Translations under genes and position numbers: made by a program
Part shown: in pieces, positions 3,011 to 63,436 of the stretch
Layout of the letters: each line of letters starts with the position of its first letter
Position numbering within the stretch: position 1 is the first letter of the stretch
The notes under the pieces: model-generated
Database searches by the model: none
Told to the model about the DNA's origin: nothing
Seen by the model: the letters and a program-made list of their open reading frames with translations, nothing else
Origin: Narcine bancroftii
Lineage: Eukaryota
NCBI RefSeq assembly: GCF_036971445.1
Contig: NC_091473.1
Coordinates: 205,158,377 to 205,222,376, forward strand
Direction of reading: 5' to 3'
DNA length: 64,000 bases

Positions 3011-3388
3011 ATGTGGTTTGAAATGAAACGCGAGAAAGAGGATGCTAGAGCACGTTAGGGATTGCTTAATGTTGAACAGGTGAAAATGTGAGACAGAGTG
3101 AGCTTCAAGAATAGAACGAAAGAAGGAGAAAGGGGGCGAGGGAGGAGATTAAAAAAAGGGTAGATGCGGGGAGTGAACAGGTAGAGGGTTGTGAAGCGAG
3201 GGGAACGCGATGCAAACTGTCTTCACTAACACGTTCTTATTGGTTGGATAATGACCACACCAACCAATCCTGTATGATGGAAACACTCTCATATCTGTCC
3301 CAAGTGTTAGACCGCTCATAACATCGCCCCACAAATTGTACTGCGGTAACATAAGGAAACCTTCGTTGATGATCTTAATCCATATACC

Positions 3389-4739: not shown

Positions 4740-5108
4740 GACTAAGGTTGAAGGGAGGGAGAGATTGGTACTGCTCTCGAAAGATTAACTAAGTGGAAGA
4801 CGGAGTCGCCTCAAGGAAGGAAGTGAAAGAGAACAGGAGAAGCGGCGAGAGGGTGCAGGAAAACATGTGAAGATGAAGGAAAGGGATGAGCAAGAGTGAA
4901 GAAGAGAGAGACGTCTGGTGTGTAAATATAGACAAGTAACACGTGGGAAAAAGAGTGAGAATGAGAACGGCCAAGATCAGTAACCAGGTTTCATTGGTTC
5001 TGTCACTATTGAGGCGATGTGCGAGGAATGCGCCCTCCTGTGCCTCCTAGAGGATGGGCCGCTACTGACGCGATGCCACAGTCATATATCGGGCGAAGAC
5101 GTTGAAAG

Positions 5109-7797: not shown

Positions 7798-7881
<84 letters not shown>

Positions 7882-7890
7882 TGTCTGTGA

Positions 7891-7923
<33 letters not shown>

Positions 7924-7955
7924 AGAGAGAGAGGGAGAGAGAGAGAGAGAGAGAG

Positions 7956-7987
<32 letters not shown>

Positions 7988-8002
7988 ATTGAGAGAGAGA
8001 GA

Positions 8003-8039
<37 letters not shown>

Positions 8040-8055
8040 AGAGAGACTGAGAGAG
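7798..8055. repeat. Compound (GT)n(GA)n microsatellite, the longest copy.
   Basis: Direct reading. ORF 7799..8038 (MCVCVCV...) is an artefact of the repeat. Confidence 0.95.
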
Positions 8056-8139
8056 CGGAAACGAAATAGAGGGAGAGAGAGGGCCGCGGGGAAATGCAAA
8101 AGGGGAAGAATTAATTGTTTAACCTGACTTCCCCCCCTT

Positions 8140-8482: not shown

Positions 8483-8871
8483 ATGTGGTTTGAAATGAAA
8501 CGCGAGAAAGAGGATGCTAGAGCACGTTAGGGATTGCTTAATGTTGAACAGGTGAAAATGTGAGACAGAGTGAGCTTCAAGAATAGAACGAAAGAAGGAG
8601 AAAGGGGGCGAGGGAGGAGATTAAAAAAAGGGTAGACGCGGGGAGTGAACAGGTAGAGGGTTCGTGAAGCGAGGGGAACGCGATGCAAACTGTCTTCACT
8701 AACGCGTTCTTATTGGTTGGATAATGACCACACCAACCAATCCTGTATGATGGAAACACTCTCATATCTGTCCGAAGTGTTAGACCGCTCATAACATCGC
8801 CCCACCAATTGTACTGCGGTAACATAAGGAAACCTTCGCTGATTATCTTAATTCACATACCATGTTCTTCG

Positions 8872-13332: not shown

Positions 13333-13736
13333 GATTCTGAAATCGGATGTGGGTGGAATCAAAACGGGAGGAAGAGGACGGGAGATCATGTTAGTGATTG
13401 CGAAAGGCCGAGCAGTTAAAAATGTTAGATAGAATGAGCTAGAGGAATAGAATGAAAGAAGCGGAGAGAGGGAGCGAGGGAGGAGATAAAAAGACGGAAG
13501 ACACTGGGAATGCACAGATAGAGGGAGAAACCGTGAAAGGAGAGCGCGATGAAGACTGTCTTCTCAACGCGGTCTGATTGGTTCACGAATGAGATCATCA
13601 ACCAATCCTATGTGAAGGAAACGCATTCATTTCTGACCCAGGGTGTTTGTCCGCTCATAACATCGACCGATCCGTATTTCCCTATGTTCAGCTGTAATAC
13701 GGGGAAATCTTCGCCTTTGACCTTAATCCGCAGATC

Positions 13737-16243: not shown

Positions 16244-16621
16244 ATGTGGTTTGAAATGAAACGCGAGAAAGAGGATGCTAGAGCAGGTTAGGGATTGCTT
16301 AATGTTGAACAGGTGAAAATGTGAGACAGAGTGAGCGTCAAGAATAGAACGAAAGAAGGAGAAAGGGAGCGAGGGAGGAGATTAAAAAAGGGTAGATGCG
16401 GGGAGTGAACAGGTAGAGGGTTCGTGAAGCGAGGGGAACGCGATGCAAACTGTCTTCACTAACGCGTTCTTATTGGTTGGATAATGACCACACCAACCAA
16501 TCCTGTATGATGGAAACACTCTCATATCTGTCCCAAGTGTTAGACCGCTCATAACATCGCCCCACCAATTGTACTGCGGTAACATAAGGAAACCTTCGTT
16601 GATGATCTTAATCCACATACC

Positions 16622-21266: not shown

Positions 21267-21329
<63 letters not shown>
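21267..21329 (-). repeat. Poly(A) tail of the LINE, seen as T63 on the + strand.
   Basis: Uninterrupted run of 63 T directly next to the left TSD. Confidence 0.9.
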
Positions 21330-21334
<5 letters not shown>

Positions 21335-21582
21335 TTTATTTTTCACACCATAAATCACAATAGCCATGATATACACTTTTTCTTTTCCACACATTTACAG
21401 TGACTTTTTCTCCCTCCCCCCTTCCTCCTCCCAAGCCACCCCCCCATCCCTCCCCCCTCTCATCCATTTTAGTTATACAATCTAGGTTGCATTATTTCAG
21501 TTAGACAATGTTGTCATTCAACAAAAATACACCAGAAATTCTACTGAGTCCATTTTTTTTCTTCTCTTCTCCTTCCATCAAC

Positions 21583-24500
21583 TTAGGTAATGTTTGTTCC
21601 CGGTAGGTTTTCGCTATTGTATTTAATGTAAGGCTCCCATACTTGTTCGAATATTTCAATATTATTTCTTAAACTATATGTTATTTTTTCTAATGGAATA
21701 CATTTATTCATTTCTATATACCATTGTTGTATTTTCAAATTATCTTCCAATTTCCAGGTTGACATAATACATTTTTTTGCTACAGCTAGGGCTATCTTAA
21801 CAAATCTTTTTTGTGCATCCTCCAAGTCAATTCCAAATTCTTTATTTTTTATGTTACTTAGGAGAAAGATCTCTGGATTCTTTGGTATATTGTTTTCTGT
21901 TATTTTATTTAATATCTGATTGAGATCATCCCAAAATTTTTCTACTCTCTCACATGTCCAGATTGCATGAATTGTTGTTCCCCTTTCTTTTTTACATCGA
22001 AAACATCTATCAGATACTGTTGGGTCCCATTTATTTAACTTTTGCGGTGTAATGTATAGTCTGTGTAACCAATTATATTGTATCATACGCAGCCTCGTAT
22101 TTATTGTATTTCTCATCGTTCCAGAGCATAACTTCTCCCATGTTTCCTTTTTTATCTTTATATTTAAATCTTGTTCCCATTTTTGTTTAGTTTTACCATT
22201 TGTTTCCTCATTTTCCTTTTCTTGCAGTTTAATATACATATTTTTTATAAATCTTTTGATTAACATTGTATCTGTAATCACATATTCAAGGTTACTTCCC
22301 TCTGGTAAACTCAAGTTGCTTCCTAATTTATCTTTCAAGTAGGATCTCAGTTGGTAATATGCCAGCGCTGTATCTCCCGTTATATTGTACTTATCTCTCA
22401 TTTGTTCAAAGGATAAGAATCTATTTCCTGAAAAACAATTTTCTATTCTTTTAATCCCTTTTTTTTCCCATTTTCTAAAGGCAAGGTTGTCTATTGTAAA
22501 AGGGAGTAGCTTATTTTGCGTCAATATTAGTTTTGGTATTTGGTAATTTATTTTATTTCTTTCTACATGTATCTTCTTCCATATATTGAGGAGATGGTGT
22601 AATACTGGAGAAGTTCTATGTTGTACCAATTTTTCGTCCCATTTATATAATATGTGTTCAGGTATCTTTTCCCCTATTTTATCTAATTCTAGTCTCGTCC
22701 AGTCTGGTTTTTCCCTTGTTTGATAAAAATCTGATAGGTACCTTAATTGTGCGGCTCTATAATAATTTTTGAAGTTTGGCAATTGTAAGCCTCCTTGTTT
22801 ATACCATTCTGTTAATTTGTCTAGTGCTATCCTCGGTTTCCCCCCTCTCCATAAAAATCTCCTTATTATTTTCTTTAACTCTTTGAAGAATTTTTCTGTC
22901 AGTTGTATTGGCAATGCCTGAAATAAGTATAGTATCCTTGGAAAAATGTTCATTTTAATACAGTTTATCCTTCCTATCAGTGTTAGTGGTAGCTCTTTCC
23001 AATGCTCTAAATCGTCCTGTAGTTTTTTCATTAGTGGATTGTAATTGAGTTTATATAATTGGCCTAGATTTTTGTTTATTTGCACACCTAGGTATCTTAT
23101 TGCCTGCGTTTGCCATCTGAATGGGGATTCCTCCTTAAATTTTGAGAAATCCGCGTTATTCATAGGCATTGCTTCACTTTTATTTACGTTTATCTTGTAT
23201 CCCGACACTTCTCCATATTCCTTCAATTTCTTATATAGTTCTTTTATTGATAGTTCTGGTTCTGTTAAGTACACTATCACATCATCCGCAAACAGACTGA
23301 TTTTATATTCCCTGTCTTTTATTTTTATTCCTTTTATATTATTATCTCTTCTTATCGATTCTGCTAGTGGTTCTATAGCTAGCGCAAACAATAATGGTGA
23401 TAGTGGGCATCCCTGCCGCGTTGACCTGCTTAAGTTAAATTGCTTTGATACATGTCCATTTACTGTCACTTTCGCTAACGGTCCCTTATATAATGCTTTA
23501 ATCCAATTAATATACTTCTCCGGTAAACTGAATTTTTGCAATACTTTGAACAAGTAATTCCATTCTACTCTGTCGAAGGCCTTCTCTGCGTCTAAAGCAA
23601 CTGCTACTGCCGGTGCTTTATTTCCTTCTACTGCATGAATTAAGTTAATAAATTTACAAATATTGTCTGTTGTGCGTCTTTTTTTGATAAATCCAGTTTG
23701 GTCTAAATTTACCATTTTCGGTACCTGTTCTGCTAATCTGTTCGCTAATAGTTTAGCTATTATCTTATAATCTGTGTTTAGCAAAGATATTGGTCTATAT
23801 GACGCTGGTGAGAGTGGATCTTTCCCTTGTTTTAGTATCACTGTAATTATTGCTGTTTTACATGAATCTGGTAAGTTTTGTGTCTCATCAATCTGGTTGA
23901 TTACATCCAGGAGGGGCGGTATTATTAGGTCTTTAAATGTTTTGTAGAATTCTATTGGGAGTCCATCCTCTCCTGGTGTCTTATTATTTGGTAAATTTTT
24001 TATTATCTCTTGTATTTCTACTGTTCCAAATGGTTCTGTTAATTTATTTTGTTCCTCTATTTGTAGTTTTGGTAGTTCAATTTTAGTCAAAAATTCATCT
24101 ATTTTCCCTTCTTTCCCTTCGTTTTCGGTTCGGTATAATTGTTCATAGAATTCTCTGAAGTTTTCCTTAATTTCTTTTGGATTATATGTAATTTGTTTGT
24201 CTTTTTTCCTTGTTGCCAATACCGTTTTCTTAGTTTGCTCTGTCTTAAGCTGCCATGCTAGGATTTTGTGTGTTTTTTCCCCTAGTTCATAATATTTCTG
24301 TTTTGTCTTCATTATATTCTTCTCCACCTTATATGTTTGTAATGTTTCATATTTTATTTTTTTATCCGCCAATTCTCTTCTTTTGGTTGTATCTTCCTTT
24401 ATTGCTAATTTTTTTTCTATGTTTATTATTTCCCTTTCCAACTGCTCTGTTTCCTGATTATAGTCCTTCTTCATCTTGGTTGCATAACTTATTATTTGCC

Positions 24501-25380
24501 CTCTAATGAATGCTTTCATTGCGTCCCATAGTATAAACTTATCTTCCACTGATTCCGTATTTACTTCAAAGTACATTTTTAATTGTTTTTCAATAAATTC
24601 TCTAAAATCCTGTCTTTTAAGTAGCATGGGGTTTAATCTCCATCTATACATTCTTGGAGGGATGTCTTCTAGCTCTATTGCCAATAACAGGGGTGAGTGG
24701 TCCGATAATAGTCTAGCTTTATATTCCGTTTTCCTAACTCTCCCTTGTATGTGGGCTGATAACAGGAATAGGTCTATCCTTGAGTATGTTTTATGTCTAG
24801 TCGAGTAGTATGAGTATTCCTTTTCTTTTGGGTTTTGTTTCCTCCATATGTCCACAAGTTTCATTTCTTGCATTGATTTAATTATAAATTTGGTTACTTT
24901 GTTCTTCCTGTTAATTTTTTTCCCCGTTTTATCCATATTTGGATCCAAATTCAGATTGAAATCCCCTCCTATTAGTATGTTCCCTTGCGTATTAGCTACC
25001 TTCAAAAAGATATCTTGCATAAACTTTTGATCTTCTTCGTTAGGTGAATATATATTAAGTAGATTCCAAAGCTCTGAATATATCTGACATTTTATCATAA
25101 CATATCTCCCTGCTGGATCTATTATTTCCTCTTCTATTTTAAATGGCACATTTTTGCTAATTAATATAGCCACTCCTCTTGCTTTTGAATTATACGATGC
25201 TGCTGTTACATGTCCTACCCAATCTCTCTTTAATTTCTTGTGCTCCCATTCAGTTAAATGTGTTTCTTGGACAAATGCTATATCTATTTTTTCCTTTTTC
25301 AGTAAATTTAGTAGTTTCTTCCTTTTAATTTGGTTATGTATTCCATTAATATTTAGAGTCATATAGTTCAGCGTAGCCAT
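21583..25380 (-). CDS. LINE ORF2 protein: N-terminal APE-type endonuclease, reverse transcriptase (FADD box), C-terminal Cys/His-rich domain.
   Basis: 1265-aa ORF. N-terminus MATLNYMTLNINGIHNQIKRKKL...DIAFVQETHL (L1 EN motifs). RT motifs ...PISLLNTDYKI..., LFADDVIVY. C-terminus CFRCKKERGTTIHAIWTCERVEKFW. Confidence 0.9.
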   Translation of the reverse strand: MATLNYMTLNINGIHNQIKRKKLLNLLKKEKIDIAFVQETHLTEWEHKKLKRDWVGHVTAASYNSKARGVAILISKNVPFKIEEEIIDPAGRYVMIKCQIYSELWNLLNIYSPNEEDQKFMQDIFLKVANTQGNILIGGDFNLNLDPNMDKTGKKINRKNKVTKFIIKSMQEMKLVDIWRKQNPKEKEYSYYSTRHKTYSRIDLFLLSAHIQGRVRKTEYKARLLSDHSPLLLAIELEDIPPRMYRWRLNPMLLKRQDFREFIEKQLKMYFEVNTESVEDKFILWDAMKAFIRGQIISYATKMKKDYNQETEQLEREIINIEKKLAIKEDTTKRRELADKKIKYETLQTYKVEKNIMKTKQKYYELGEKTHKILAWQLKTEQTKKTVLATRKKDKQITYNPKEIKENFREFYEQLYRTENEGKEGKIDEFLTKIELPKLQIEEQNKLTEPFGTVEIQEIIKNLPNNKTPGEDGLPIEFYKTFKDLIIPPLLDVINQIDETQNLPDSCKTAIITVILKQGKDPLSPASYRPISLLNTDYKIIAKLLANRLAEQVPKMVNLDQTGFIKKRRTTDNICKFINLIHAVEGNKAPAVAVALDAEKAFDRVEWNYLFKVLQKFSLPEKYINWIKALYKGPLAKVTVNGHVSKQFNLSRSTRQGCPLSPLLFALAIEPLAESIRRDNNIKGIKIKDREYKISLFADDVIVYLTEPELSIKELYKKLKEYGEVSGYKINVNKSEAMPMNNADFSKFKEESPFRWQTQAIRYLGVQINKNLGQLYKLNYNPLMKKLQDDLEHWKELPLTLIGRINCIKMNIFPRILYLFQALPIQLTEKFFKELKKIIRRFLWRGGKPRIALDKLTEWYKQGGLQLPNFKNYYRAAQLRYLSDFYQTREKPDWTRLELDKIGEKIPEHILYKWDEKLVQHRTSPVLHHLLNIWKKIHVERNKINYQIPKLILTQNKLLPFTIDNLAFRKWEKKGIKRIENCFSGNRFLSFEQMRDKYNITGDTALAYYQLRSYLKDKLGSNLSLPEGSNLEYVITDTMLIKRFIKNMYIKLQEKENEETNGKTKQKWEQDLNIKIKKETWEKLCSGTMRNTINTRLRMIQYNWLHRLYITPQKLNKWDPTVSDRCFRCKKERGTTIHAIWTCERVEKFWDDLNQILNKITENNIPKNPEIFLLSNIKNKEFGIDLEDAQKRFVKIALAVAKKCIMSTWKLEDNLKIQQWYIEMNKCIPLEKITYSLRNNIEIFEQVWEPYIKYNSENLPGTNIT

Positions 25381-25980
25381 TTTATATTTTGTTTATCTTC
25401 TCTTTCCGTTTTTCCATCATTACCTTTCCTCCTTTTCCATTTCTGTTTTCTTATTTTCAACTCTTTACCAGACAACATTCCTACAACATCCAACATTTTC
25501 CTTATTCTCCTATTTCTATCTTCTTTATCCCCAATCTCCCCTTCCCCTCCTGAGTTGCCCTTTATCCCTTGTCGGACAACCACATCTCCCCTCTCCATTT
25601 GGATTTGCGAATCCACTCGCAAGCGTCAACTGATTTTGCAGTGACCGCTCTTTTCCCCCCACCCAGCCCCCCCCAGAAAAGATTTCGTTTTTTATATGTC
25701 ACAAAGGTCACTCTTTTAGTTCCCTCCTTATTCTCTCTATTCCATTACCTTCCCTTATTAATTCTTGTCTATACTTTCTATGTTTTCCTCTAATTACAGA
25801 TACTTTCACATATGCCCGTTGTCTCTATTCACTCTTATACCTCTTTACCCGCATACATATCAATCGTGGTCATTTTTACCCTCCTTACCCGTCTTCATCC
25901 CTCAGTCTATTTTTGTCTTTACCCACATACATATCAATCGTGATAATTTTTGCTCTCATTACCCGTCTTCATCCCTCAGT

Positions 25981-27210
25981 CTATTTTTGTAATTGTTCTG
26001 CAAATTTTCGTGCTTCTTCTGGATCCGAGAATAGTCTGTTTTGTTGTCCTGGAATAAATATTTTCAATACCGCAGGATGCTTCAGTGTAAATTTATATCC
26101 TTTCTTCCATAAAATCGCTTTTGCTGCATTGAACTCTTTTCTCTTCTTTAGGAGTTCAAAGCTTATATCTGGATAAATGAAGATTTTTTGCCCTTTATAC
26201 TCCAGTGGTTTGTTGCCCTCTCTTACTTTTTCCATTGTCTTCTCCAGCACCTTTTCTCTTGTAGTATATCTTAGGAATTTTACTACAATAGATCTTGGTT
26301 TTTGTTGTGGTTGTGGTTTAGGGGCCAATGCTCTATGTGCCCTTTCTATTTCCATTTCTTGCTGTAGTTCTGGACATCCTAGGGCCTTAGGGATCCATTC
26401 TTTTATAAACTCCCTCATATTCTTGCCTTCTACATCTTCCTTAAGGCCCACTATCTTTATGTTATTTCTTCTGTTATAATTTTCCATTATATCTATTTTT
26501 TGGGCTAGTAATTCTTGTGTCTCTTTAGTTTTTTTATTAGATTCCTCCAATTTCTTTTTTAAGTCTTCTACCTCCATTTCTGCTGCTATTGCCCGTTCTT
26601 CCATCTTGTCCATTTTTTTCCCCATTTCTGTTAAGGTCATATCCATTTTATTTATTTTCTTTTCTGTGTTGTTTATTCTTCTTCTTAAATCATTGAATTC
26701 CTGTGTTTGCCATTCTTTAAATGACTCCATGTATCCTCTAACAAGAGCAAGTACCTCCTTTACCTTGCCTATCTTTTCTTCTTCTATTTCCCTGTACTCT
26801 TCCTCTTCCTCTTCTTCTTCCTCTAGGTTGACCATCTGTTGTTTCTTTGCTGCCCTTTCCTCCTCTTCTTTCTTGTTTCCATTGTCTTCTGTGGTGTCTT
26901 CTTGCTGCAGGTGTTCTGCAGCTGTCGTTGCCGGCTGTGGAGATCGACTCCCCAGCTGGTCCCCCCTCCCGTCGGTGTGTTTTTTTGTATGCGCATCGCG
27001 CATGCGCGAGGAGTCGCGCATGCGCGGTTGCGCACTTTTACTCGGCTCTGTGAGCCATTGTTGTAGTTCTCTTTCTACCGACCTGAGGTAATGGGGTCTT
27101 CTCTCCACAGCGGGCCTCTTCGGACAGGTAAGGCCTTCACCTTTTTCCTCCGTTGTCTTCTCTTCCTCTCTTCTTTCCGTTGATTTTGATTTTTCTCCTT
27201 TTGTCTCCAT
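25981..27210 (-). CDS. LINE ORF1 protein (L1 ORF1p-like). Acidic, coiled-coil, and a C-terminal domain with the RNNIKIVGLKE motif.
   Basis: 409-aa ORF with E/K-rich heptad-like stretches (EEEEEEEEYREIEEEKIGKVKE...). The RNNIKIVGL.E motif resembles the L1 ORF1 (Transposase_22) RNN-RI-G-PE signature. Confidence 0.8.
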   Translation of the reverse strand: METKGEKSKSTERREEEKTTEEKGEGLTCPKRPAVERRPHYLRSVERELQQWLTEPSKSAQPRMRDSSRMRDAHTKKHTDGRGDQLGSRSPQPATTAAEHLQQEDTTEDNGNKKEEEERAAKKQQMVNLEEEEEEEEEYREIEEEKIGKVKEVLALVRGYMESFKEWQTQEFNDLRRRINNTEKKINKMDMTLTEMGKKMDKMEERAIAAEMEVEDLKKKLEESNKKTKETQELLAQKIDIMENYNRRNNIKIVGLKEDVEGKNMREFIKEWIPKALGCPELQQEMEIERAHRALAPKPQPQQKPRSIVVKFLRYTTREKVLEKTMEKVREGNKPLEYKGQKIFIYPDISFELLKKRKEFNAAKAILWKKGYKFTLKHPAVLKIFIPGQQNRLFSDPEEARKFAEQLQK

Positions 27211-27433: not shown

Positions 27434-27847
27434 CATTCTGAGATGGGATGTGGTTAGAGAGAAAAGGGGAGAAAGAAGTGGATAAGCGTGTTGAGATTGA
27501 GAAGGGTTAAGCAGGTGAAAGAGTGAGACAGCGTGAGGAAGAACCGTAGAAAGAATGAAGGGGTGAGACGGAGGAGTGAGGGAAAGCGAGGGAGGAGATA
27601 CAAAGAGGGCAGGAGAAAGACGCGGGAAGTGGACATAGAGGGAGAAACTGAGCGAAGGACGGGGAACGAGATGGGGATTGTCTTATCAACTCAATCTGGT
27701 TGGATCAATTATGGCCACACGAACCAATCCTGTGTGTGGTAAACACTCTCAAATCTGGCCCAAGCGTCATTTCGCTTAAAACATCGCTCCACCCTGGTAC
27801 AGCGGTAACACAGGGAAATCTTCGCTTTAGACCTTAATCCGCGTACC

Positions 27848-29591: not shown

Positions 29592-29995
29592 GATTCTGAA
29601 ATCGGATGTGGGTGGAATCAAAAGGGGATGAAGAGGACGGGAGATCATGTTAGTGATTGCGAAAGGCCGAGCAGGTGAAAATGCTAGATAGAATGAGCTA
29701 GAGGAATAGAATGAAAGAAGCGGAGAGAGGGAGCGAGGGAGGAGATAAAAAGACGGAAGACACTGGGAATGCACAGATAGAGGGAGAAACCGTGAAAGGA
29801 GAGCGCGATGAAGACTGTCTTCTCAACGCGGTCTGATTGGTTCACGAATGAGATCATCAACCAATCCTATGTGAAGGAAACGCATTCATTTCTGACCCAG
29901 GGTGTTTGTCCGCTCATAACATCGACCGATCCGTATTTCCCTATGTTCAGCTGTAATACGGGGAAATCTTCGCCTTTGACCTTAATCCGCAGATC

Positions 29996-32491: not shown

Positions 32492-32869
32492 ATGTGGTTT
32501 GAAATGAAACGCGAGAAAGAGGATGCTAGAGCAGGTTAGGGATTGCTTAATGTTGAACAGGTGAAAATGTGAGACAGAGTGAGCGTCAAGAATAGAACGA
32601 AAGAAGGAGAAAGGGGGCGAGGGAGGAGATTAAAAAAAGGGTAGATGCGGGGAGTGAACAGGTAGAGGGTTGTGAAGCGAGGGGAACGCGATGCAAACTG
32701 TCTTCACTAACGCGTTCTTATTGGTTGGATAATGACCACACCAACCAATCCTGTATGATGGAAACACTCTCATATCTGTCCCAAGTGTTAGACCGCTCAT
32801 AACATCGCCCCACCAATTGTACTGCGGTAACATAAGGAATCCTTCGTTGATGATCTTAATCCACATACC

Positions 32870-37883: not shown

Positions 37884-37916
37884 CTGGTCGGATCAATTAT
37901 GGCCACACGAACCAAT
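37884..37916 (+). promoter_or_regulatory. Inverted CCAAT-type pair upstream of V_C copy 2. The distal box is degenerate (TGGTCGG).
   Basis: agtcTGGTCGGatcaattatggccacacgAACCAATcc, about 120 bp upstream of ATG 38036. Confidence 0.4.
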
Positions 37917-38035: not shown

Positions 38036-38709
38036 ATGTCCCTCCTGAGTTGTTTGCTGATTCTGTGGGCCTTTCTGACTGGTGAGACTGTCTGATTGGT
38101 CAGCGACGTCTATCCATCGTCTTTTCTCTTTGTATCTCCAGCTTTAACCTAATGAAAATTGACAATTCCCCAAAATGTTGCTTCCGACTTGGAATCGCGC
38201 TCTTATATAATCGAGCATTTGTAAAATATTCTTCCTCCGATTTGAGTCCGGGCATCATTTTCCTACTGTGCTGTTGGCTGATTGTTTGCGCCGTTCTACC
38301 TGGTGAGAGTGATTGGTCAACAAGTGTCCAGTGGGATCAGCGCGATTAACACCTTCTGTTTTGTTCCAGGGGCGAGTGGGAACGACTCAGTTAGTCAAGA
38401 CCCCACGGAATTGGTGGTCTATGAAGGGCAGATCGTATCACTGAGCTGCAGTTACTCGAAGAGCCTGACGGCATATATTTGGTACATTCATCATCCTGGA
38501 AAATCTCCCAAATATCTGCTGAAAATCTACGCGTCAGGAGAGGCGTTTCCGTCTCCAGATTGTCCGGAGAGGATATCGGGTATATTGGAGAAAAAGAGTC
38601 AGAAATCCCACCTTAACATCTCTAAAAGCCTTGTAGAAGATTCCGCCGTGTATCTCTGCGCAGTGAAGCACACGCTGTTCCTGAGCAGTGGCAGATCCGT
38701 ACAAAAAAC
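38036..38709 (+). CDS. Germline V gene segment, family C, copy 2. L-PART1 38036-38081, V exon 38370-38670, RSS 38671-38709.
   Basis: As copy 1. ORF 38282..38713. RSS is CACGCTG, 23-bp spacer, ACAAAAAAC. Confidence 0.8.
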
Positions 38710-39291
38710 GTAGCACACGAAATTTAATCGGACGCAGTGGGTCGGGGGCGCCCTCGATCACGGAATGGAAGCGGTAGCGCGACCTTCTTGGAGAGTCTGC
38801 AGGAACGTGGAGTGTGTTGAGATCTGCCCTCCTATGATCGTTTCTCTCTCTCTGCGTGCTCTGTGTCTGAGGTGAGAGGTTGGAAGTCTTGAAGAAATAG
38901 ACAGCTATTTGCTGGAATATTGTACTTAAACGATCGATTGTTGTTTAGATAGATGGGAGGGAGAGGTTATCACAACTCTCTAAAGGTTAAATAAGTGTAA
39001 GAGGGAGTGGAGTCGAAACAGAACGGGAGAAGCAGCGAGGGGGCCCAGGAAAACAAGCGGAGGTGATGGGAAGGGATGAGCGAGAGTGAAGAAGATAAAG
39101 ACGTGGGGAGTGTAAATGTAGACAGCGAAACACGAGCGAAAATGACTGAACATGAGAACAGCCAACATTAATAACTAGATTCCATTGGTCCAGTAACTGC
39201 GCCCTATTGAGCCGATGTGCGAGGAGGGCGCCCTCCTGTGTATCCTAGAGGATGGGCCGCCACTGACGCGACCACCCAGTCTTCGACTAAA

Positions 39292-39779
39292 ATGTTGAAA
39301 TATTCGCTGTTTATCTTCATGCTGGTTTCGTCCCCATTCAGTTATTTGTTGATTCTGTGGGCCGTTCAGCTTGGTGAGCCTCTGACAGATTGGACAGCGC
39401 GTGTCCCTACCGGCTCAGCGCAATTCTTCTCATATCTTGCACTGCGAGCTTCATTCCAGGAACAAAAGGGGAAATGTAGTAACACACGGAAATGTCTGCG
39501 GGACGCCAAGCAGAGTCACTGACACTACTTACCCCACAAGTCTTACCTTATATCTTTGGGACGTTAAAATCCCCGTGGATCGTCAAATCTTGGATATAAC
39601 ATCCAGTTCGATGTGGTTCAGACTCACGATCGTCTGGACAGGATGACGGTTACATTGGAGAAAAGGGTCCGAATATTACATCTCAATATCTCGAAAGCTC
39701 TTGAAGCCGACTTGACCGTGTATATCTGTGCGGTGCGGCTCACTCTGTTCTTTGGAAATTGCGGTGACGCACAAAACCT
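39292..39779 (+). pseudogene. V pseudogene, family D, copy 3. Leader 39292-39373, V exon 39460-39740, RSS 39741-39779.
   Basis: RSS is CACTCTG, 23-bp spacer, ACAAAACCT. Stop codon in the degenerate FR1-CDR2 region. Confidence 0.65.
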
Positions 39780-40023
39780 GATTCTGAAATCGGATGTGGG
39801 TGGAATCAAAACGGGAGGAAGAGGACGGGAGATCATGTTAGTGATTGCGAAAGGCCGAGCAGGTGAAAATGTTAGATAGAATGAGCTAGAGGAATAGAAT
39901 GAAAGAAGCGGAAAGAGGGACCGAGGGAGGAGATAAAAAGACGGAAGACACTGGGAATGCACAGATAGAGGGAGAAACCGTGAAAGGAGAGCTCGATGAA
40001 GACTGTCTTCTCAACGCGGTCTG

Positions 40024-40053
40024 ATTGGTTCACGAATGAGATCATCAACCAAT
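40024..40053 (+). promoter_or_regulatory. Putative V-gene promoter module: inverted CCAAT pair (ATTGGTT-N16-AACCAAT) about 130-160 bp upstream of the V_A L-PART1 ATG. Representative copy.
   Basis: ctgATTGGTTcacgaatgagatcatcAACCAATcc. The two boxes are exact reverse complements of each other. The same module precedes every distal leader of families A, B and C (for example 296-326, 42926-42955, 37884-37916). Confidence 0.5.
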
Positions 40054-40183
40054 CCTATGTGAAGGAAACGCATTCATTTCTGACCCAGGGTGTTTGTCCG
40101 CTCATAACATCGACCGATCCGTATTTCCCTATGTTCAGCTGTAATACGGGGAAATCTTCGCCTTTGACCTTAATCCGCAGATC

Positions 40184-40396
40184 ATGGCTGTTGTGTGTTT
40201 TTTGCCGATTCTTTTGGTCGTTTTGACTGGTGAGCATGTCCGATATGTTACCATCCCCGGTAGTCCACGTGTTTTTAACTTTAACCTTAGTAAAGTTAGA
40301 TGAGTTCCCCCCAAGAATCAAACTCCTTAGCTCTCCGTCCGTTTACTCGTTTACTCGTTCACTGTCTACGTACTGATCTACGTCGCGCGCCCCCTT

Positions 40397-40428
<32 letters not shown>

Positions 40429-41021
40429 CTCGCCATTCTAATGAGAGAGAAACAAGTCCAGTCTCCCAAAGACATTTTTCAGCATCCGACTTGAGTTTGC
40501 GACCTTGTGTCGGGCGAGCATTTAGAAAATTTCTTTCTTCCGAATTGAAGCCGAGCATCATGTTCCTCCTGAAGATTGGGCAGAATCTTAGGGCCGATCT
40601 GCCAGCTGAGACAGATTGGTCAACAAGTGTCGCGCGGGTGCAGTACGGACCAGCGGTGTTCACTCATTCTGCTTTGTTCCAGGGGCCAGTGCGAATGAAT
40701 CAGTGACACAAAGACCGCCGGAAATGATAGTCGATGAAGGGCAGTTTGTGGAACTGAACTGTAGTTACTCGATGACAACCTACGCTTATTTTTGGTACAT
40801 TCAACATCCCGGAGTATCTCCAAAATATTTGCTGAAAATCCAACTGTCAGGAGACGTGTTTCCTTCTCGCGATTGTCCTGAGAGGATATCGGGTTCCTTA
40901 GAGAAAACGAGCCAGAGATTCCACCTTAATATCTCACAAATCCGCGTGGATGATTCCGCCGTGCATCTCTGCGCCGTGGAGCTCACGCTGTTCCAGAGCG
41001 GCGGGGATCTGCACAAAAACT
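40184..41021 (+). CDS. Germline V gene segment, family A, copy 4. L-PART1 40184-40229, V exon 40683-40983, RSS 40984-41021.
   Basis: Canonical leader, donor and acceptor. ORF 40616..41185. Conserved Tyr before C104 is replaced by His (DSAVHLCAV). Heptamer CACGCTG, nonamer ACAAAAACT at 41013-41021. Confidence 0.75.
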
Positions 41022-42114: not shown

Positions 42115-42183
<69 letters not shown>

Positions 42184-42184
42184 C

Positions 42185-42263
<79 letters not shown>

Positions 42264-42268
42264 GAGAG
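42115..42268. repeat. Compound (GT)n(GA)n microsatellite.
   Basis: Direct reading. Confidence 0.95.
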
Positions 42269-42353: not shown

Positions 42354-42696
42354 TCAGTTGTTTTCTGATTTTGTGGACCGATCCTCTTGGCGAACCTCTG
42401 ACTGATTTGGTAGCTTGCGTCCCTCCCGGTTCAGCGCAATTTCTCGCATATTACATTCATTGCGTGTTTCGTTCAGACACAAATTGAAATATCGTGGCCC
42501 ATATATTAAATGCTTAAAAATTATAACCGAGACGACGTGGTTCTGCCTCACGTTTGACTGGACAGGATGACGTTGGAGAAAAGGGGCCGGATATTTCACC
42601 TCAATAAGTCGAAAACCTTTGTAGCGGACTTGATGGTTTATCCCAGGGCGGTGTGGCTCACGCTGTTCTTTGGAAATAGCTGATCGCACAAATCGT
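42354..42696 (+). pseudogene. V pseudogene, family E, copy 5.
   Basis: Homologous. Reads VYPRAV. Nonamer at 42688-42696. Confidence 0.6.
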
Positions 42697-42925: not shown

Positions 42926-42955
42926 ATTGGTTGGATAATGACCACACCAACCAGT
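42926..42955 (+). promoter_or_regulatory. Inverted CCAAT pair upstream of V_B copy 5. The proximal box is mutated to CCAGT in this copy.
   Basis: ttATTGGTTggataatgaccacaccAACCAGTcc. Other V_B copies carry AACCAATcc (for example 3258-3270 region, 16490-16500). Confidence 0.45.
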
Positions 42956-43075: not shown

Positions 43076-43879
43076 ATGTTCTTCGTGAATGGTTTGGTGA
43101 TTCTTTGGGCCGTTCTGACTAGTGAGCCTGTCTGACTGGTCAGCGACTTCTGCCCATTGTCCTCTCTCTACAAATCTCTAGCTTTAACCTAATTAAAGAC
43201 GGAGAATTTCCCCATCTTCCTTTGCTCTTCCTTGCACCTTCTTCCTCCGCTTACTCATTTACACACTCTCTGTGTTTACTGAACTTCCTCGCGGTTTCAC
43301 TGTCGCACTCGTTCCCCCCCTCTCTCGCTCTTCGCCATTTTCGTACGAGGGAAACGGGGACACATACAGAGTTTCTGCTGCTCCCGACGTGGGTACGCAA
43401 CCTGATACCTCCGAATTTAGACCGGGCATCATGTTCCTACTGATTTGTTGGCTGATTATATGCACCGTTCCGCCTGTTGAGACCAATTGGTCAACTAGTG
43501 CCGCGCGGGTTCAGTGCCATCCAGCGGCGTTCACACATTTTGTTTTGTTCCAGGGGCGAGGGCAAAGGATTCGGTGACCCAAAGCCCGCCGCAAATGTTA
43601 GTGGATAAAGGGCAGATCGTATCAATGAGATGTAGTTACTTGATTAGCCCCGACACTAATTTTTGGTACATTCAATATCCCGGAGAATCTCCAAAATATT
43701 TGGCGAAAATCTACACGTCCCGAATCGTGTTTCAGACTCACGATTGTCCTGAGAAAATAACGCGTTATTTGGTGAAAAAGGTAATGAAATCCCACCTCAA
43801 CATCTCTGAAAGCCTTGTGGAGGAATCCGTCGTGTATCTCACGCAGCTGCAGATGGGCTGGCAGATCCACACAAAAAAC
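43076..43879 (+). CDS. V gene segment, family B, copy 5. L-PART1 43076-43121, V exon 43554-43839, RSS 43840-43879. ORF is open but lacks the second Cys.
   Basis: Leader MFFVNGLVILWAVLT plus 1 nt, donor GTGAGC, acceptor ttccag. ORF 43514..44008 includes C23, W41, FR3 ...SESLVEESVVYL, then heptamer CACGCAG directly (no CAV codons), 24-bp spacer, nonamer ACAAAAAAC. Proximal promoter CCAAT is mutated to CCAGT in this copy (42950-42954). Confidence 0.6.
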
Positions 43880-44768
43880 CGAACCTCATGGAATTTAATC
43901 GGACACTGTGGCTCAGGGGCGCACCCGTCAACGGAATGGAAGCGACAGCGCGATCTACCTGAAGGGCCTGCTATAACGCGGAGTTGCAGGAGATTTGCCA
44001 TTCTCTGAGCGTTTCTCTTTCTCTGAGTGCTCTTGGTCTGAATTGGAGGTTGGAAGTCAGGGGAGAGTGTGAAACAGATAGGTATTTGTCAGTATATTGT
44101 AGGAAAATGAAGCAATGTTCTTTCGATGGAAGGTGAGAAGATTAAAAAATCTTAGCCACGCGGGTCGGTGGGACTAGCGATCCCTCAAACCTGTTATTGC
44201 TAAAATGAACAACTAGCTCCTTGGTCTTGATGATATTAAAAACATAATTGTCGTTCTAGAACCAGCCAAACTGGTTCTCGATCACTATCCCTCATTCGGA
44301 CTCATCGTTTCCATTTATTTGGGCAGCCCTGGTGGCGCCTTCAGCTAATTTGTAGATTGAGTTTGGGGTGAACTTGGCTGAACATCCATGAGTGAACATG
44401 GCTAAGGTTGAAGGGAGGGAGAGATTGGCACTGCTCTCGAAAGATTAACTAAGTGGAAGGCGGAGTCGCCTCAAGGAAGGAAGTGAAAGAGAACAGGAGA
44501 AGCGGCGAGAGGGTGCAGGAAAACATGTGAAGATGAAGGAAAGGGATGAGCAAGAGTGAAGAAGAGAGAGACGTCTGGTGTGTAAATATAGACAAGTAAC
44601 ACGTGGGAAAAAGAGTGAGAATGAGAACGGCCAAGATTAGTAACCAGATTTCATTGGTTCTATCACTATTGTGACGATGTGCGAGGAATGCGCCCTCCTG
44701 TGCCTCCTAGATGATGGGCCGCTACTGACGCGATCCCACAGTCACATATCGGGCGAAGACGTTGAAAG

Positions 44769-45670: not shown

Positions 45671-46562
45671 TTCTTTTTCAATCTTTTTATTATTATTATA
45701 ATTTATAAACACATACAGTTCAAAGAGATATAAAAAATACATAGTAAGTAATGAATTAATACAGAGATATTAAACAATAATATTACAGAATAAAAATATA
45801 TCATAAAGTTTTTTTTACATCAGTTTAAGGTGTGAAATATCTCTAAAAAAAAGATATAATTAATAACAATGTATGAAAAAAGGGAAAAAAATACCCCAAA
45901 AAAGAAGAAAAAACAAATCTGAATTAAAAAAACAAAAAAAAAACAAAAAAAACCTACAGATATTGCTAAACCACGCCGATCACTCCGATTTCAACTTACA
46001 GCCCAATTATCATACATAATCATAGAAAGAAAACAGAGCCAGATCAACTCACCACAAATGAAAATATTGAATAAATGGTCGCCAGGTTAACTCAAACTTA
46101 GAAGGGGATTCATAGACAGAGTTTCTAATTTTCTCTAAATTTAAACATAGTATAGTTTGGGTAAACCATTGGAAAACAGTGGGAGGATTAACCTCTTTCC
46201 AATTCAATAGTATAGATCTTCTAGCCATTAGTGTAAGAAAAGCAATCATACGATCCGCAGGAAGAGATAAATAAGTCAAATCTATCATAGGTGCAAAACA
46301 TTCACTAATAGAGTTTAAAGTTGTTCATAGAGCTCATATGTCTAAAGATAAGCTCCATCGCTTTTATTCTCATATCGATCCTATATGTGATAAATGTCAA
46401 TTGGAAATAGCTTCCCTTACACATATGTTTTGGTCCTGTCCCTCTTTACAGAATTATTGGAAGGAAGTTTTTTCCATTATATCTACTGTTTTGAATATTG
46501 ATTTACAACCACATCCCATTACTGCAATTTTTGGATTACCTATGATAGATTTGACTTATTTA
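45671..46562 (-). mobile_element. Same twin-priming LINE fragment insertion, cassette-5 copy.
   Basis: TSD at 45658-45670 and 46563-46575. ORF2 C-terminus 46049..46288 (-) begins MIDLTYLS..., and the inverted segment 46338..46562 (+) ends ...PMIDLTYLS. Confidence 0.75.
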
Positions 46563-47654
46563 TCTCATATTTTCTATACTTTTCTCGTAGCTAATTGCTA
46601 TTTGTTCCCTATACACACTTTACACCTTCTTCACCAGATCGCAAATGTCCTCGAAAACCAAGGTTCCCTCTGCCTGTTATCTGTGCCTTTAATCGTGACA
46701 GGAACGGGCAAAATCTGCTCTCTCAAAATGTCGCATTTGAAGACCTTCCACTGACTGAACACATATTTGCCATTAAACAGATTATTCCAGTCCACTCTTC
46801 CTCGATCCTTTCTCATTTCCATAAATTGGCCTCTCACCAATTTATAATATTAACACGACGGTTAGACCTGTCCATATGCATAAGTAAATTGAAAATAAGG
46901 ACATAAAGTATTGCATCAGCTCTCGTTGGCACCTATATATATTGATTAAGAAATCTTTCCTGAACAGATTTGACAAACGTTAAGCCACCCAGCCCTTTTA
47001 CCACATGGGGGTCCAGTCAATATATGGAAAATTAAAATCACCTACTATCCCAACTTTCTGTTTCTTACATCGGTCTGCTTACTCTTTTCAGATTTGCACC
47101 GTCAATTCTCTTGGACTATTGTACGGTCTATAATACAACCCTTTCAGTGTGGCCGCATCATACCCGTTGGTGAACTACATCCATATGGCCTCTGAGGACG
47201 AGTCCTCTCCTGTCTAATCTCACTCTTCCCCCTTTCACCCTCCCACATCATGTCAGAAAGAGAGAATCCTGGAGCAATGTGCTGCCAGTCCTACTGCTCC
47301 TGCAACCACGTCTCACTAAAGGCAATAAAGTCGTGATTCCACGCCTGAAAACCGCCCGCCTTTGTGGCAATACTCGTTGCCTTAAAATAAATAGAACATT
47401 TCTATCGTGTGCAAACCTTTGATTTCTGTCTATACACGCAGTCCTCACATGATATTTATCCACGTCCACCTCACTATCAGCTCTCACAGTCTGGTTTCCT
47501 TCCCCCTACAAATCAAACTTAACCCTCCGGAACAGCATCAGCAAACCTGCCTGCAAGGATATAGGTCCCCTTCCAGTTCGGATACAAACCCCCTGTCAGA
47601 TATATTTGCTGGAAAATCCGCAGCTCAGGGGTAGATGGTCTGTCTCACTATTGC

Positions 47655-47798
47655 ACGGACAGGAAGAAGGATTCCTTGGAGAAAAGGGGTCGGATATTCT
47701 TTGTCATTATCTCCGGAGATTCTGAAGTGGACTTGTCCGTTTGTCTCTGTTCGGTGCGATTCACACGCTTCCTGGGATATTGCGGAGGTACACAGGCT
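47655..47798 (+). pseudogene. V fragment, family G.
   Basis: As 37476-37619. Heptamer at 47762-47768. Confidence 0.5.
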
Positions 47799-48214
47799 CA
47801 TTCTGAGATGGGATGTGGTTATAGAGAAAAGGGTAGAAAGAAGTGGATAGAGCGTGTTGAGGATTGAGAAAGGTTAAGCAGGTGAAAGAGTGAGACAGAG
47901 TGAGGTAGAACCGTAGAATGAATGCAGGGGTGAGACGGAGGAGTGAGGGAAAGCGAGGGAGGAGATGCAAAGAGGGCAGGAGAAAGACGCGGGAAGTGGA
48001 CATAGAGGGAGAAACTGAGCGAAGGACGGGGAACGAGATGGGGATTGTCTTATCAACTCAGTCTGGTTGGTTCAATTATGGCCACACGAACCAATCCTGT
48101 GTGAGGTAAACACTCTCATATCTGGCCCAGGCGTCATTTCGCTTATAACATCGCCCCACCCTGGTACAGCGGTAACAGAGGGAAATCTTCGCTTTAGACC
48201 TTAATCCGCGTACC

Positions 48215-49958: not shown

Positions 49959-50362
49959 GATTCTGAAATCGGATGTGGGTGGAATCAAAACGGGAGGAAG
50001 AGGACGGGAGATCATGTTAGTGATTGCGAAAGGCCGAGCAGGTGAAAATGTTAGATAGAATGAGCTAGAGGAATAGAATGAAAGAAGCGGAGAGAGGGAG
50101 CGAGGGAGGAGATAAAAAGACGGAAGACACTGGGAATGCACAGATAGAGGGAGAAACCGTGAAAGGAGAGCGCGATGAAGACTGTCTTCTCAACGCGGTC
50201 TGATTGGTTCACGCATGAGATCATCAACCAATCCTATGTGAAGGAAACGCATTCATTTCTGACCCAGGGTGTTTGTCCGCTCATAACATCGACCGATCCG
50301 TATTTCCCTATGTTCAGCTGTAATACAGGGAAATCTTCGCCTTTGACCTTAATCCGCAGATC

Positions 50363-52281: not shown

Positions 52282-52405
<124 letters not shown>

Positions 52406-52491
52406 GCGGAATCGATATAGAGGGAGAGAGAGGGCCGCGGGGAAATGCAAAAGTGGGAAGAATTAATTGTTTATCCTGACTTCCCCCCCTT

Positions 52492-52834: not shown

Positions 52835-53213
52835 ATGTGGTTTGAAATGAAACGTGAGAAAGAGGATGCTAGAGCACGTTAGGGATTGCTTAATGTTGAA
52901 CAGGTGAAAATGTGAGACAGAGTGAGCGTCAAGAATAGAACGAAAGAAGGAGAAAGGGGGCGAGGGAGGAGATTAAAAAAAGGGTAGATGCGGGGAGTGA
53001 ACAGGTAGAGGGTTCGTGAAGCGAGGGGAACGCGATGCAAACTGTCTTCACTAACGCGTTCTTATTGGTTGGATAATGACCACACCAACCAATCCTGTAT
53101 GATGGAAACACTCTCATATCTGTCCCAAGTGTTAGACCGCTCATAACATCGCCCCACCAATTGTACTGCGGTAACATAAGGAAACCTTCGTTGATGATCT
53201 TAATCCACATACC

Positions 53214-57945: not shown

Positions 57946-58359
57946 CATTCTGAGATGGGATGTGGTTAGAGAGAAAAGGGGAGAAAGAAGTGAATAAGCG
58001 TGCTGAGATTGAGAAAGGTTAAGCAGGTGAAAGAGTGAGACAGAGTGAGGTAGAACTGTAGAAAGAATGAAGGGGTGAGACGGAGGAGTGAGGGAAAGCG
58101 AGGGAGGAGATACAAAGAGGGAAGGAGAAAGACGCGGGAAGTGGACATAGAGGGAGAAACTGAGCGAAGGACGGGGAACGAGATGGGGATTGTCTTATCA
58201 ACTCAGTCTGGTTGGATCAATTATGGCCACACGAACCAATCCTGTGTGAGGTAAACACTCTCATATCTGGCCCAAGCGTCATTTCGCTTATAACATCGCC
58301 CCACCCTGGTACAGCGGTAACACAGGGAAATCTTCGCTTTAGACCTTAATCCGTGTACC

Positions 58360-60097: not shown

Positions 60098-60501
60098 GAT
60101 TCTGAAATCGGATGTGGGTGGAATCAAAACGGGAGGAAGAGGACGGGAGATCATGTTAGTGATTGCGAAAGGCCGAGCAGGTGAAAATGTTAGATAGAAT
60201 GAGCTAGAGGAATAGAATGAAAGAAGCGGAGAGAGGGAGCGAGGGAGGAGATAAAAAGACGGAAGACACTGGGACTGCACAGATAGAGGGAGAAACCGTG
60301 AAAGGAGAGCTCGATGAAGACTGTCTTCTCAACGCGGTCTGATTGGTTCACGAATGAGATCATCAACCAATCCTAGGTGAAGGAAACGCATTCATTTCTG
60401 ACCCAGGGTGTTTGTCCGCTCATAACATCGACCGATCCGTATTTCCCTATGTTCAGATGTAATACGGGGAAATCTTCGCCTTTGACCTTAATCCGCAGAT
60501 C

Positions 60502-61358: not shown

Positions 61359-62452
61359 CACCTCGAGAATTGTCATCACGCGCGGTGGCTTGGGGGCGCT
61401 CTCGGTCCCCAGAAGCCAGTTCTGTCAGTCAGATTAATAGAAGGGTGAAGTCAACGCCGAGGTGCTGGAGATTTTCCCTCATCTTGCGTTTCTTTTTCTC
61501 TGCATCCGTTTCGTTTCTTTGAGGTTGAAGGTAGGATGACAGCGAGGGAGAAAAAGTGAACAGCTGTTTCCCAGAATATAGTGGGAAAATGGAAGTTATG
61601 TTTTTGTGATGGAAATTGAGAAGTTGATAATGGCGGCGCGGGTAGGGCAAGAGCGTGGCCACACATTCATGAGTGCATATGGCATAGAGTAGGGGACAAA
61701 GCAGGCATTGATGCGTGGTTCTGATCATCGTAGAGGAGGTGATGTTGCCGATGAGCACTGTTGGGGGCTTCCAATGAGGATGTCACAGATCCAGTAACAG
61801 ATGGCTGGACAAAGTACCGGATCCTTTAGATTGGTCTTCCGCTTTGCAACTGTGTGGGCGTTGAACGCCGGGCATTAGTCCTTGAACAGCAAACCCACCA
61901 TGGTATTTCAGCGGTATAGGTGATTTAATAAAGAGTGGACCGTCAACGGTAGCGGTGGGGGTGGGGGTCGGTCGTCACTTGTGGCGACGGGCGATGGGCG
62001 AATTGAAGTGTGTCCAGTTCCTTCAAGTGATAGGTGTTAATGCGCTCGATAACCAAACGGCGAAAACATTTCCTCCAAGTCCGTTAACTTGCTCCTGATG
62101 GGCAACAGGAGAGAGCAACGTGGAAGCAAAATCTCATAGAAATGCTGGAGCAACACAGCCGGTGCTGCAGAACCCAAAAGGAGGGAAAGATACCTCACCG
62201 ATATTTCGGGTCTGAGTCCTTCTTCAATGAATAAGAAAATCTCCTGAATGTGTTAAAATTAAGACTGCAGACTGACCGGTTTTGTTGGGGGGGTGGGGGG
62301 GGGGGTGGTGAGGGAGAGGGGCAGTTCAAAGCGACAGTTGATAATTGGCTATGGAAGGTAAAGAGATGAGAATTGATTTTGTTTCTGTCAACGGGGACAG
62401 AGGGAAACTCACATAGACCGAGACACAGAATGAGAGATAGAGATAGATAGAT

Positions 62453-62630
<178 letters not shown>

Positions 62631-63057: not shown

Positions 63058-63436
63058 ATGTGGTTTGAAATGAAACGCGAGAAAGAGGATGCTAGAGCAC
63101 GTGAGGGATTGCTTAATGTTGAACAGGTGAAAATGTGAGACAGAGTGAGCGTCAAGAATAGAACGAAAGAAGGAGAAAGGGGGAGAGGGAGGAGATTAAA
63201 AAAAGGGTAGATGCGGGGAGTGAACAGGTAGAGGGTTCGTGAAGCGAGGGGAACGCGATGCAAACTGTCTTCACTAACGCGTTCTAATTGGTTGGATAAT
63301 GACCACACCAACCAATCCTGTATGATGGAAACACTCTGATATATGTCCAAAGTGTTAGACCGCTCATAACATCGCCCCACCAATTGTACTGCGGTAACAT
63401 AAGGAAACCTTCGTTGATGATCTTAATCCACATACC

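Follow-up and report, generated by a model that had tools for sequence, protein, structure and literature searches.

The two CCAAT boxes at 40024-40053 of the 64,000-nucleotide stretch analyzed here (the window) are probably two independent, ordinary CCAAT/Y-box promoter elements and candidate NF-Y sites. We hold this reading with modest confidence. In it, the boxes descend from one ancestral V promoter that was multiplied by recent segmental duplication, and one box suffices. The site reads ATTGGTTcacgaatgagatcatcAACCAAT, which is exactly ATTGGTT-N16-AACCAAT and agrees with the pattern (N16-18) of the first-pass annotation. It consists of a distal, inverted ATTGG (40024-40028), a 16-bp spacer (cacgaatgagatcatc) and a proximal CCAAT (40049-40053). 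The boxes thus stand in opposite orientation, 25 bp apart, in what would be the proximal promoter of TCR alpha/delta-like V segments. The annotation had regarded the pair as a palindromic module common to all V families. It is intact in only two of the five homologous V-promoter families of the window, VA and VB.

Self-comparison of the window revealed a tandem array of ~10.18-kb units (~10.2 kb) that are 95-98% identical and are broken up by an L1 element. The array holds six copies of VA, seven of VB, four of VC, five complete copies of PsiE and six of PsiF. Leader exons downstream of the motif splice to V-set domains (Pfam PF07686, E 1e-12 to 1e-14), and the V exons end CAV-type, followed by a heptamer, a 22-24-bp spacer and a nonamer (23-bp RSS). 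Among PDB matches overall, antibody scFv and diabody constructs scored highest; among single-V-domain chains, TCR alpha chains were the best. Because of the Pfam V-set match, the TCR alpha chains as the closest single-domain structures and the 23-bp RSSs, the segments are identified as V genes and, as judged from the sequence, the locus is a TCR alpha/delta-like V cluster on the plus strand throughout. At the focal site, the VA leader exon (L-PART1, MAVVCFLPILLVVLT + G) occupies 40184-40229 on the plus strand with a donor GT at 40230, and the V exon, which encodes a TCR alpha-like V-set domain, occupies 40683-40983 on the same strand with a 23-bp-spacer RSS at 40984-41021.

The families differ in integrity. 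VC is the best-preserved and most functional-looking family, with intact ORFs, canonical Cys residues and RSS in all four copies. VA has four copies with open reading frames and two disrupted ones; in copy 60168, which is counted as open, the V exon is 1 bp shorter, so that the frame shifts in the last codons and gives CAWS, not CAVE. No VB copy has the second conserved Cys or a proper heptamer, and stops or frameshifts are present in five of the six complete copies, leaving 42750 as the sole in-frame complete copy. These losses make VB a family of pseudogenes, which is still duplicated along with its neighbours. At the VB 3' end (43820-43879 and other VB copies), YL-CACGCAG... stands in place of the true heptamer, and a small 3' deletion relative to VC is apparently the cause of the missing Cys and heptamer.

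Several further features of the array were observed. The L1 element is full-length, lies on the minus strand at 21267-27210 and interrupts one repeat unit. Its ORF1 (25981-27210, 409 aa) and ORF2 (21583-25380, 1265 aa) are intact, its poly-A tail appears as a 77-nt poly-T run (21267-21343), and it is potentially active; the best named relatives in a homologue search with ORF2 were teleost L1 elements at 45% identity. A compound (TG)n(GA)n microsatellite, the length of which varies by copy, lies ~700 bp upstream of every VB promoter (42115-42268; copies e.g. 2419-2582, 7798-8081, 52283-52406 and 62452-62629), and the VA intron has a (TC)n tract (40397-40421, plus copies) that is length-variable too. 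Some 250 bp upstream of each VA, VB and VC promoter is the RSS of a pseudo-V or V relic (PsiE RSS at 39741-39779; V relics at 42533-42692 and about 47600-47720), and the purine-rich tract begins right after this RSS. The unit that was duplicated ancestrally was apparently a pair of pseudo-V and V. The long L-V introns of VA, VB and VC each hold a further leader exon in decayed form, ~130 bp 5' of the V exon (VC 38257-38302, VA 40560-40605, VB 43431-43476, plus copies), which is clearly paralogous to the outer leader. Its GT donor is lost in VA and VB, and in VC the donor is kept, the ATG is changed to ATT, and TATATAA is found just upstream (38204-38210). PsiE and PsiF have one leader only and a ~90-bp intron. 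A few bases 3' of the outer and inner leader splice donors there is an inverted CCAAT in the context (G/A)ATTGGTCA(A/G)C (38095-38099, 38312-38316, 40615-40619, 43486-43490, and copies). The one after the inner leader, ATTGGTCAAC, is a 10-bp block invariant in VA/VB/VC and matches the promoter box in conservation although it is intronic.

A scan of the window for ATTGGTT-N14-20-AACCAAT gave 12 exact matches, against 0 in 100 shuffles. A mismatch-tolerant search added 42926-42955 (proximal box CCAGT) as a 13th copy, as well as four sites in which the left half is not ATTGG. The CCAAT pentamer by itself is barely over-represented in the window (181 vs 160 expected). Only two module sequences were present, one per family. 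The VA sequence occurs six times: at the focal site, at 297-326 with an extra CAAT duplication directly 3' of the proximal box, at 13577-13606 (given previously as 13590-13615), at 29836-29865, at 50203-50232 with an A>C change in the spacer, and at 60342-60371. The VB sequence occurs seven times, with the spacer ggataatgaccacacc. The pair at 53064-53093 (ATTGGTTggataatgaccacaccAACCAAT) forms a 9-bp inverted repeat, and further intact pairs are located at 3239-3268, 8712-8741, 16472-16501, 32720-32749 and 63287-63316. In the seventh, 42926-42955, the proximal box is mutated to CCAGT and precedes the sole in-frame complete VB copy; the annotation had rightly noted that the only ORF-open VB copy (42750) carries this change. 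The 12 identical copies exist because the ~10.2-kb unit was duplicated recently, and the two module sequences come from one ancestral promoter, so the count of 12 vs 0 is not independent evidence. The statistic is the outcome of recent duplication, not of recurrence. In tandemly duplicated antigen-receptor loci, N exact copies against 0 expected gauges duplication, not selection.

The pair occupies a constant place in the promoter. The centre-to-centre distance of the boxes (middle base to middle base) is 25 bp in both VA and VB, and the end of the proximal CCAAT is separated from the leader ATG by 130 bp in VA and 120 bp in VB. The boxes are at -135/-160 in VA and -125/-150 in VB relative to the ATG, and the module lies 120-160 bp before the ATGs. 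They are also ~50 and ~75 bp upstream of a conserved TATA-position block (GCTCATAACATCG, 40100-40112, plus strand), in which AACATCG is invariant in VA/VB/VC. This block may be a core promoter element; it follows the proximal CCAAT by ~50 bp and precedes the ATG by ~75 bp. On the other side, a purine-rich tract (39850-40010, ~75% A+G on the plus strand) extends between the upstream pseudo-V RSS and the module. The observation that such a tract precedes each module was borne out (73-80% purine vs a window mean of 50%), and the tract is homologous in all five families. The longest invariant VA/VB/VC promoter block, GCGAGGGAGGAGAT (14 bp, 39920-39933 region and homologues, columns 87-100 of the three-way alignment described below), belongs to this purine tract and is not a CCAAT box; chance alone would give 0.22 runs of 14 bp, and the block may be a GAGA-like or polypurine element.

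The two halves of the module are distributed unequally among the families. Both boxes are intact in 6/6 VA and 6/7 VB copies, and at least one intact CCAAT pentamer is present in the -105 to -160 zone of all 28 V promoters. Only the proximal box is intact in all four VC copies. The VC homologue at 37887-37916, previously listed as a double box at 37884-37916, reads GTCGGAT...AACCAAT, in which the distal box is GTCGG and only the proximal AACCAAT is intact; in the other VC homologues (27699-27728, 48066-48095 and 58211-58240) the distal box is GTTGG. Only the distal box is intact in PsiE (5/5 copies) and PsiF (6/6), with unrelated sequence at the proximal position. In PsiE it reads ggaCCAATgga on the minus strand (39184-39188, ~108 bp before the ATG; copies at 12737, 28996, 49363 and 59502), and in PsiF it reads gaaCCAATgaa on the same strand (44653-44657; copies at 4993, 10450, 18198, 34474 and 54816). 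Neither these leaders, with the distal ATTGG only, nor the four VC genes with intact ORFs have the pair, contrary to its ascription to every functional-looking L-PART1. The halves have been kept or lost independently, the distal one being lost in VC and the proximal one lacking in PsiE and PsiF.

These promoters are homologous. The VA, VB and VC promoters can be aligned over their full length, with a mean column identity of 80% and pairwise values of 71-80% depending on the segment. The five-family alignment revealed that the PsiE and PsiF promoters are homologous throughout to those of VA/VB/VC, including the purine-rich tract. From this alignment, the common ancestor of the window's five V families probably already had the inverted distal ATTGG, and the proximal box belongs to the VA/VB/VC clade. 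Module integrity does not track gene integrity: open reading frames follow only 4 of the 12 intact pairs, and 5 of the 9 open V segments are without an intact pair. Some of this speaks against the reading as ordinary promoter elements, since the pseudogene family VB keeps both boxes, whereas VC has lost one and the sole in-frame VB copy the other.

To evaluate conservation, the consensus sequences of families VA, VB and VC were placed in a three-way alignment (390 columns). The fraction of invariant columns was 0.62 in the upstream purine tract, 0.57 in the 30-bp module, 0.65 from the module to the ATG, 0.63 in the leader exon, 0.54-0.70 in the intron segments and 0.64 in the V exon. The module (57% invariant) compares with a mean of 60% over 30-bp promoter windows, and 76% of these windows are at least as conserved. 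Within families, variable columns made up 8/94 in the module vs 232/2546 in the flanks (Fisher P=1), which gives no signal of within-family purifying selection on the module. Footprinting across V paralogues, proposed in the first-pass annotation as a check, thus gave the 30-bp unit no advantage in conservation over its flanks, whether families were compared with each other or internally. Invariant columns likewise make up 54-70% of the introns and V exon, so that at VA/VB/VC depth neutrality seems to be uniform across the locus.

Smaller parts of the module behave differently. The proximal AACCAATCCT is a 10-bp invariant block across VA/VB/VC, and five of the seven columns of the distal 7-mer are invariant in the three-way alignment. 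Invariance of ten prespecified columns has P=0.01, yet ~1.4 such runs are expected by chance in 390 columns. Over the 294 alignable promoter columns of all five families, the distal TTGG is one of only two invariant runs of at least four columns; for five prespecified columns, invariance of four or more has P=0.03, a result that alignment anchoring may inflate. Between VA and VB the arms are identical at 14/14 positions (nominal P=0.015) and the spacer at 8/16 (nominal P=0.03 for 8/16 or fewer), and in the three-way alignment 5/16 spacer columns are invariant (nominal P=0.01 for so few). By these values, constraint on each pentamer core has weak, nominal support and constraint on the 30-bp unit has none, and the spacer is evolving faster than background. 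Conserved arms around a diverged spacer would be the pattern expected of two separate protein sites with an unconstrained spacer.

Much of this would also be expected if the boxes were a neutral relic with no role in transcription, passively inherited with a ~400-bp promoter copied along with the genes, and persisting because of young duplications and moderate family splits (~75% identity). Divergence is uniform over the promoter, introns and V exon, the module has no within-family substitution deficit, and runs of at least 10 invariant columns are expected ~1.4 times by chance in the 390-column alignment. Pentamers are mutated in apparently intact genes (GTTGG/GTCGG in VC; CCAGT in VB at 42926) and boxes are kept by pseudogenes, and L1-derived sequence in the same repeat unit has everted CCAAT pairs too. 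Passive inheritance accounts less readily for pentamer cores nominally above background conservation (P about 0.015-0.04), for at least one box in 28/28 promoters, for a position and flanks that match verified NF-Y sites, and for the mild excess of CCAAT pairs 19-40 bp apart. We regard it as somewhat unlikely, with a substantial residual probability.

Outside the promoters, everted pairs are found within the same repeat unit in sequence derived from L1 or other repeats (46168/46199, 31 bp apart; 46825/46837, 12 bp apart; and copies). The pairs at 46168-46203 and 46825-46841 are unrelated to V promoters, indicating that such pairs arise without promoter function. In one repeat unit, the number of CCAAT pairs 19-40 bp apart was 4 vs 0.94 expected (P=0.024).

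The half-sites had been described as exact reverse complements. This is correct, with inverted-repeat arms of 8 bp in VA (GATTGGTT/AACCAATC) and 9 bp in VB (ATTGGTTGG/CCAACCAAT), the arm extensions being directed outward in VA and inward in VB. However, two RRCCAAT sites in opposite orientation automatically form a 7-bp inverted repeat, and the change in VC is uncompensated; a palindrome made of two CCAAT boxes calls for no special explanation. When single-strand folding was compared with shuffles, z was -3.4 for VB, -1.4 for VA and +0.55 for VC. A hairpin or cruciform was rejected as a conserved structure, since VA is unremarkable and VC is unfolded, without compensatory change.

The same data bear on whether the module is a true bipartite palindromic unit, in which a fixed 16-bp spacer would be required for cooperative twin NF-Y, for a dimeric factor on both arms or for a cruciform. 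Such a unit would account for exact reverse-complement arms (8 bp long in VA; 9 bp long in VB, with a fold z of -3.4), and for a 25-bp distance within the known double-NF-Y class. The broken left arm of VC, without compensatory change (z=+0.55), the missing right arm of PsiE and PsiF and the 7-bp deletion in the PsiF spacer are contrary to it, as are the different arm extensions of VA and VB and a palindromy that opposed RRCCAAT sites produce automatically. The spacer lengths of VA and VB are equal despite 50% sequence divergence, but 30 indel-free bases are expected about half the time from a rough count of gap events in the three-way alignment. A bipartite unit is thus very improbable in our estimation. 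What stands of the earlier proposal of an NF-Y-type bipartite element is the promoter-proximal CCAAT boxes, their NF-Y-like flanks and the 25-bp distance; no unit is conserved above background.

The five family promoters were scanned for octamer, CRE, RUNX, ETS, GATA, Sp1, TATA, E-box, Myb, TCF and Ikaros motifs. Beyond CCAAT, only CAGGTG was common, at the far 5' edge of VA/VB/VC, and the scan found no conserved octamer or canonical CRE. The Ig V octamer, ATGCAAAT/ATTTGCAT, is located about 70 bp upstream of the start. The sole match in the octamer scan was a 7/8 ATGCAAAC at -179 in VB, with none in VA, VC, PsiE or PsiF. The TRBV decamer/CRE, AGTGAYRTCA with a TGAnnTCA core, is found 80-120 bp upstream of many TRBV genes (PMC2685407). 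In VA, the spacer sequence TGAGATCA fits the loose TGAnnTCA form of this element, and AATGAGATCA (40036-40045, at -149) is an 8/10 match to the V-beta decamer; the near match is absent from VB and VC. The earlier statement that no octamer or CRE is evident therefore holds for the canonical forms but not for this loose one. In the VB spacer the minus strand reads TGTGGT, an exact RUNX core (42943-42948 and copies), and VC has TGTGGC.

These spacer motifs raise the alternative of a composite element, in which the spacer would hold a lineage-specific site and the CCAAT boxes would assist. The VA sequence that agrees with AGTGAYRTCA at 8/10 positions and fits TGAnnTCA (PMC2685407), the exact RUNX core in the VB spacer and the TGTGGC of VC could each serve as such a site. 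However, neither motif is common to the families, the RUNX site sits in a pseudogene family, the matches were found post hoc, and no part of the promoter is less conserved than the spacer (5/16 invariant, P=0.01). We give this explanation little credence.

We return to the reading that we favour, two independent CCAAT boxes each able to bind NF-Y. Binding of NF-Y needs every base of CCAAT, and mammalian sites have a purine at -1/-2, C/G at +1 and a purine at +2, the +2/+3 positions being stringent and T disfavoured (PMC6843132). The VA distal box, CTGATTGGTT as a plus-strand 10-mer and AACCAATCAGA on the minus strand, fits these rules fully (AACCAATCAG), and for the most part so do the distal boxes of VB (AACCAATAAG), PsiE (GACCAATGG) and PsiF (AACCAATGA). 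The invariant proximal box CCAATCCT, within the block AACCAATCCT, has C at +2 and T at +3, which is off the mammalian matrix.

In the mechanism that we propose, the ubiquitous trimer NF-Y (NF-YA/B/C) would bind whichever box is intact. It would keep the region upstream of the predicted transcription start nucleosome-free and would help to position initiation at the TATA-position block ~50 bp downstream, giving the presumed promoter activity. T-lineage specificity would come from elsewhere, e.g. locus enhancers. A single box appears to be enough, and the palindrome of VA and VB would be a by-product, not a functional unit. Should NF-Y bind the boxes, that would add a little to the scant knowledge of V-gene promoters outside mammals and would suggest that a ubiquitous pioneer factor, and not a lymphoid-specific motif, sets basal V-promoter architecture here. 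A more far-reaching and quite doubtful possibility is that TCR alpha/delta V promoters here have swapped a CRE/decamer- or octamer-type motif for an NF-Y-based architecture (a purine tract plus one or two Y boxes, everted twins 25 bp apart in some families), with NF-Y as a pioneer factor that would keep unrearranged V promoters nucleosome-free and hence RAG-accessible.

Searches beyond the locus returned few relatives. Protein searches with the V sequences gave nothing usable, the one hit being a muntjac TRAV at 34% identity, and metagenome DNA scans with the promoter pattern and the V-exon pattern gave no match. Two paralogous genes of the muntjac TRAV locus have no CCAAT within 400 bp upstream of either, which is very thin evidence, from two muntjac genes, that the CCAAT box is not a universal TRAV promoter feature. 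In the papers that could be searched, no direct precedent was found for CCAAT/NF-Y in TCR V promoters.

On the favoured reading, the pair is a fresh instance of a well-known element type. The CCAAT box of NF-Y typically lies about -60 to -100 from the transcription start site, and double-CCAAT modules are known from cell-cycle promoters and from sites co-bound by FOS/Sp/RFX5/PBX3. As in NF-Y/Y-box promoters, the boxes here are promoter-proximal and upstream of a TATA-position block. The NF-Y control probe CTGATTGGTTAAA is of the MHC class II Y-box type, and the boxes here are likewise intact with a purine-rich 5' flank (AACCAAT). The VA distal CTGATTGGTT is identical to the core of the standard NF-Y EMSA control probe (PMC7061728) and to ICE3 of the topoisomerase II-alpha gene (PMC2673423), and the proximal CCAATCC resembles a verified NF-Y site, ICE1 (CCAATCCC; PMC2673423). 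In contrast to such NF-Y sites, at least one family here that looks functional (VC) does without the distal box.

Human ChIP-seq found NF-Y-bound double CCAAT boxes with distance peaks at 24-28 and 35-37 bp and never below 19 bp (PMC4889920); the 25-bp distance here falls in the 24-28 bp class and above the 19-bp minimum. In NF-Y-bound regions, direct repeats are much commoner than inverted or everted pairs, the spacing of the inverted and everted configurations not being analysed separately (PMC4982600), whereas the pair here is everted, ATTGG...CCAAT. It also differs from the double-CCAAT modules in having no Sp1 or E-box site between the boxes, and in belonging to antigen-receptor V segments and not to cell-cycle genes. 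A double-CCAAT module would be expected to keep both boxes together in related promoters; here two of five families have both. The V-beta decamer and Ig octamer promoters are similar in that a short motif ~80-160 bp upstream is shared by paralogues through duplication (PMC2685407). The shared motif here, unlike theirs, is CCAAT, which is of the ubiquitous-factor type and neither lymphoid nor CREB-family.
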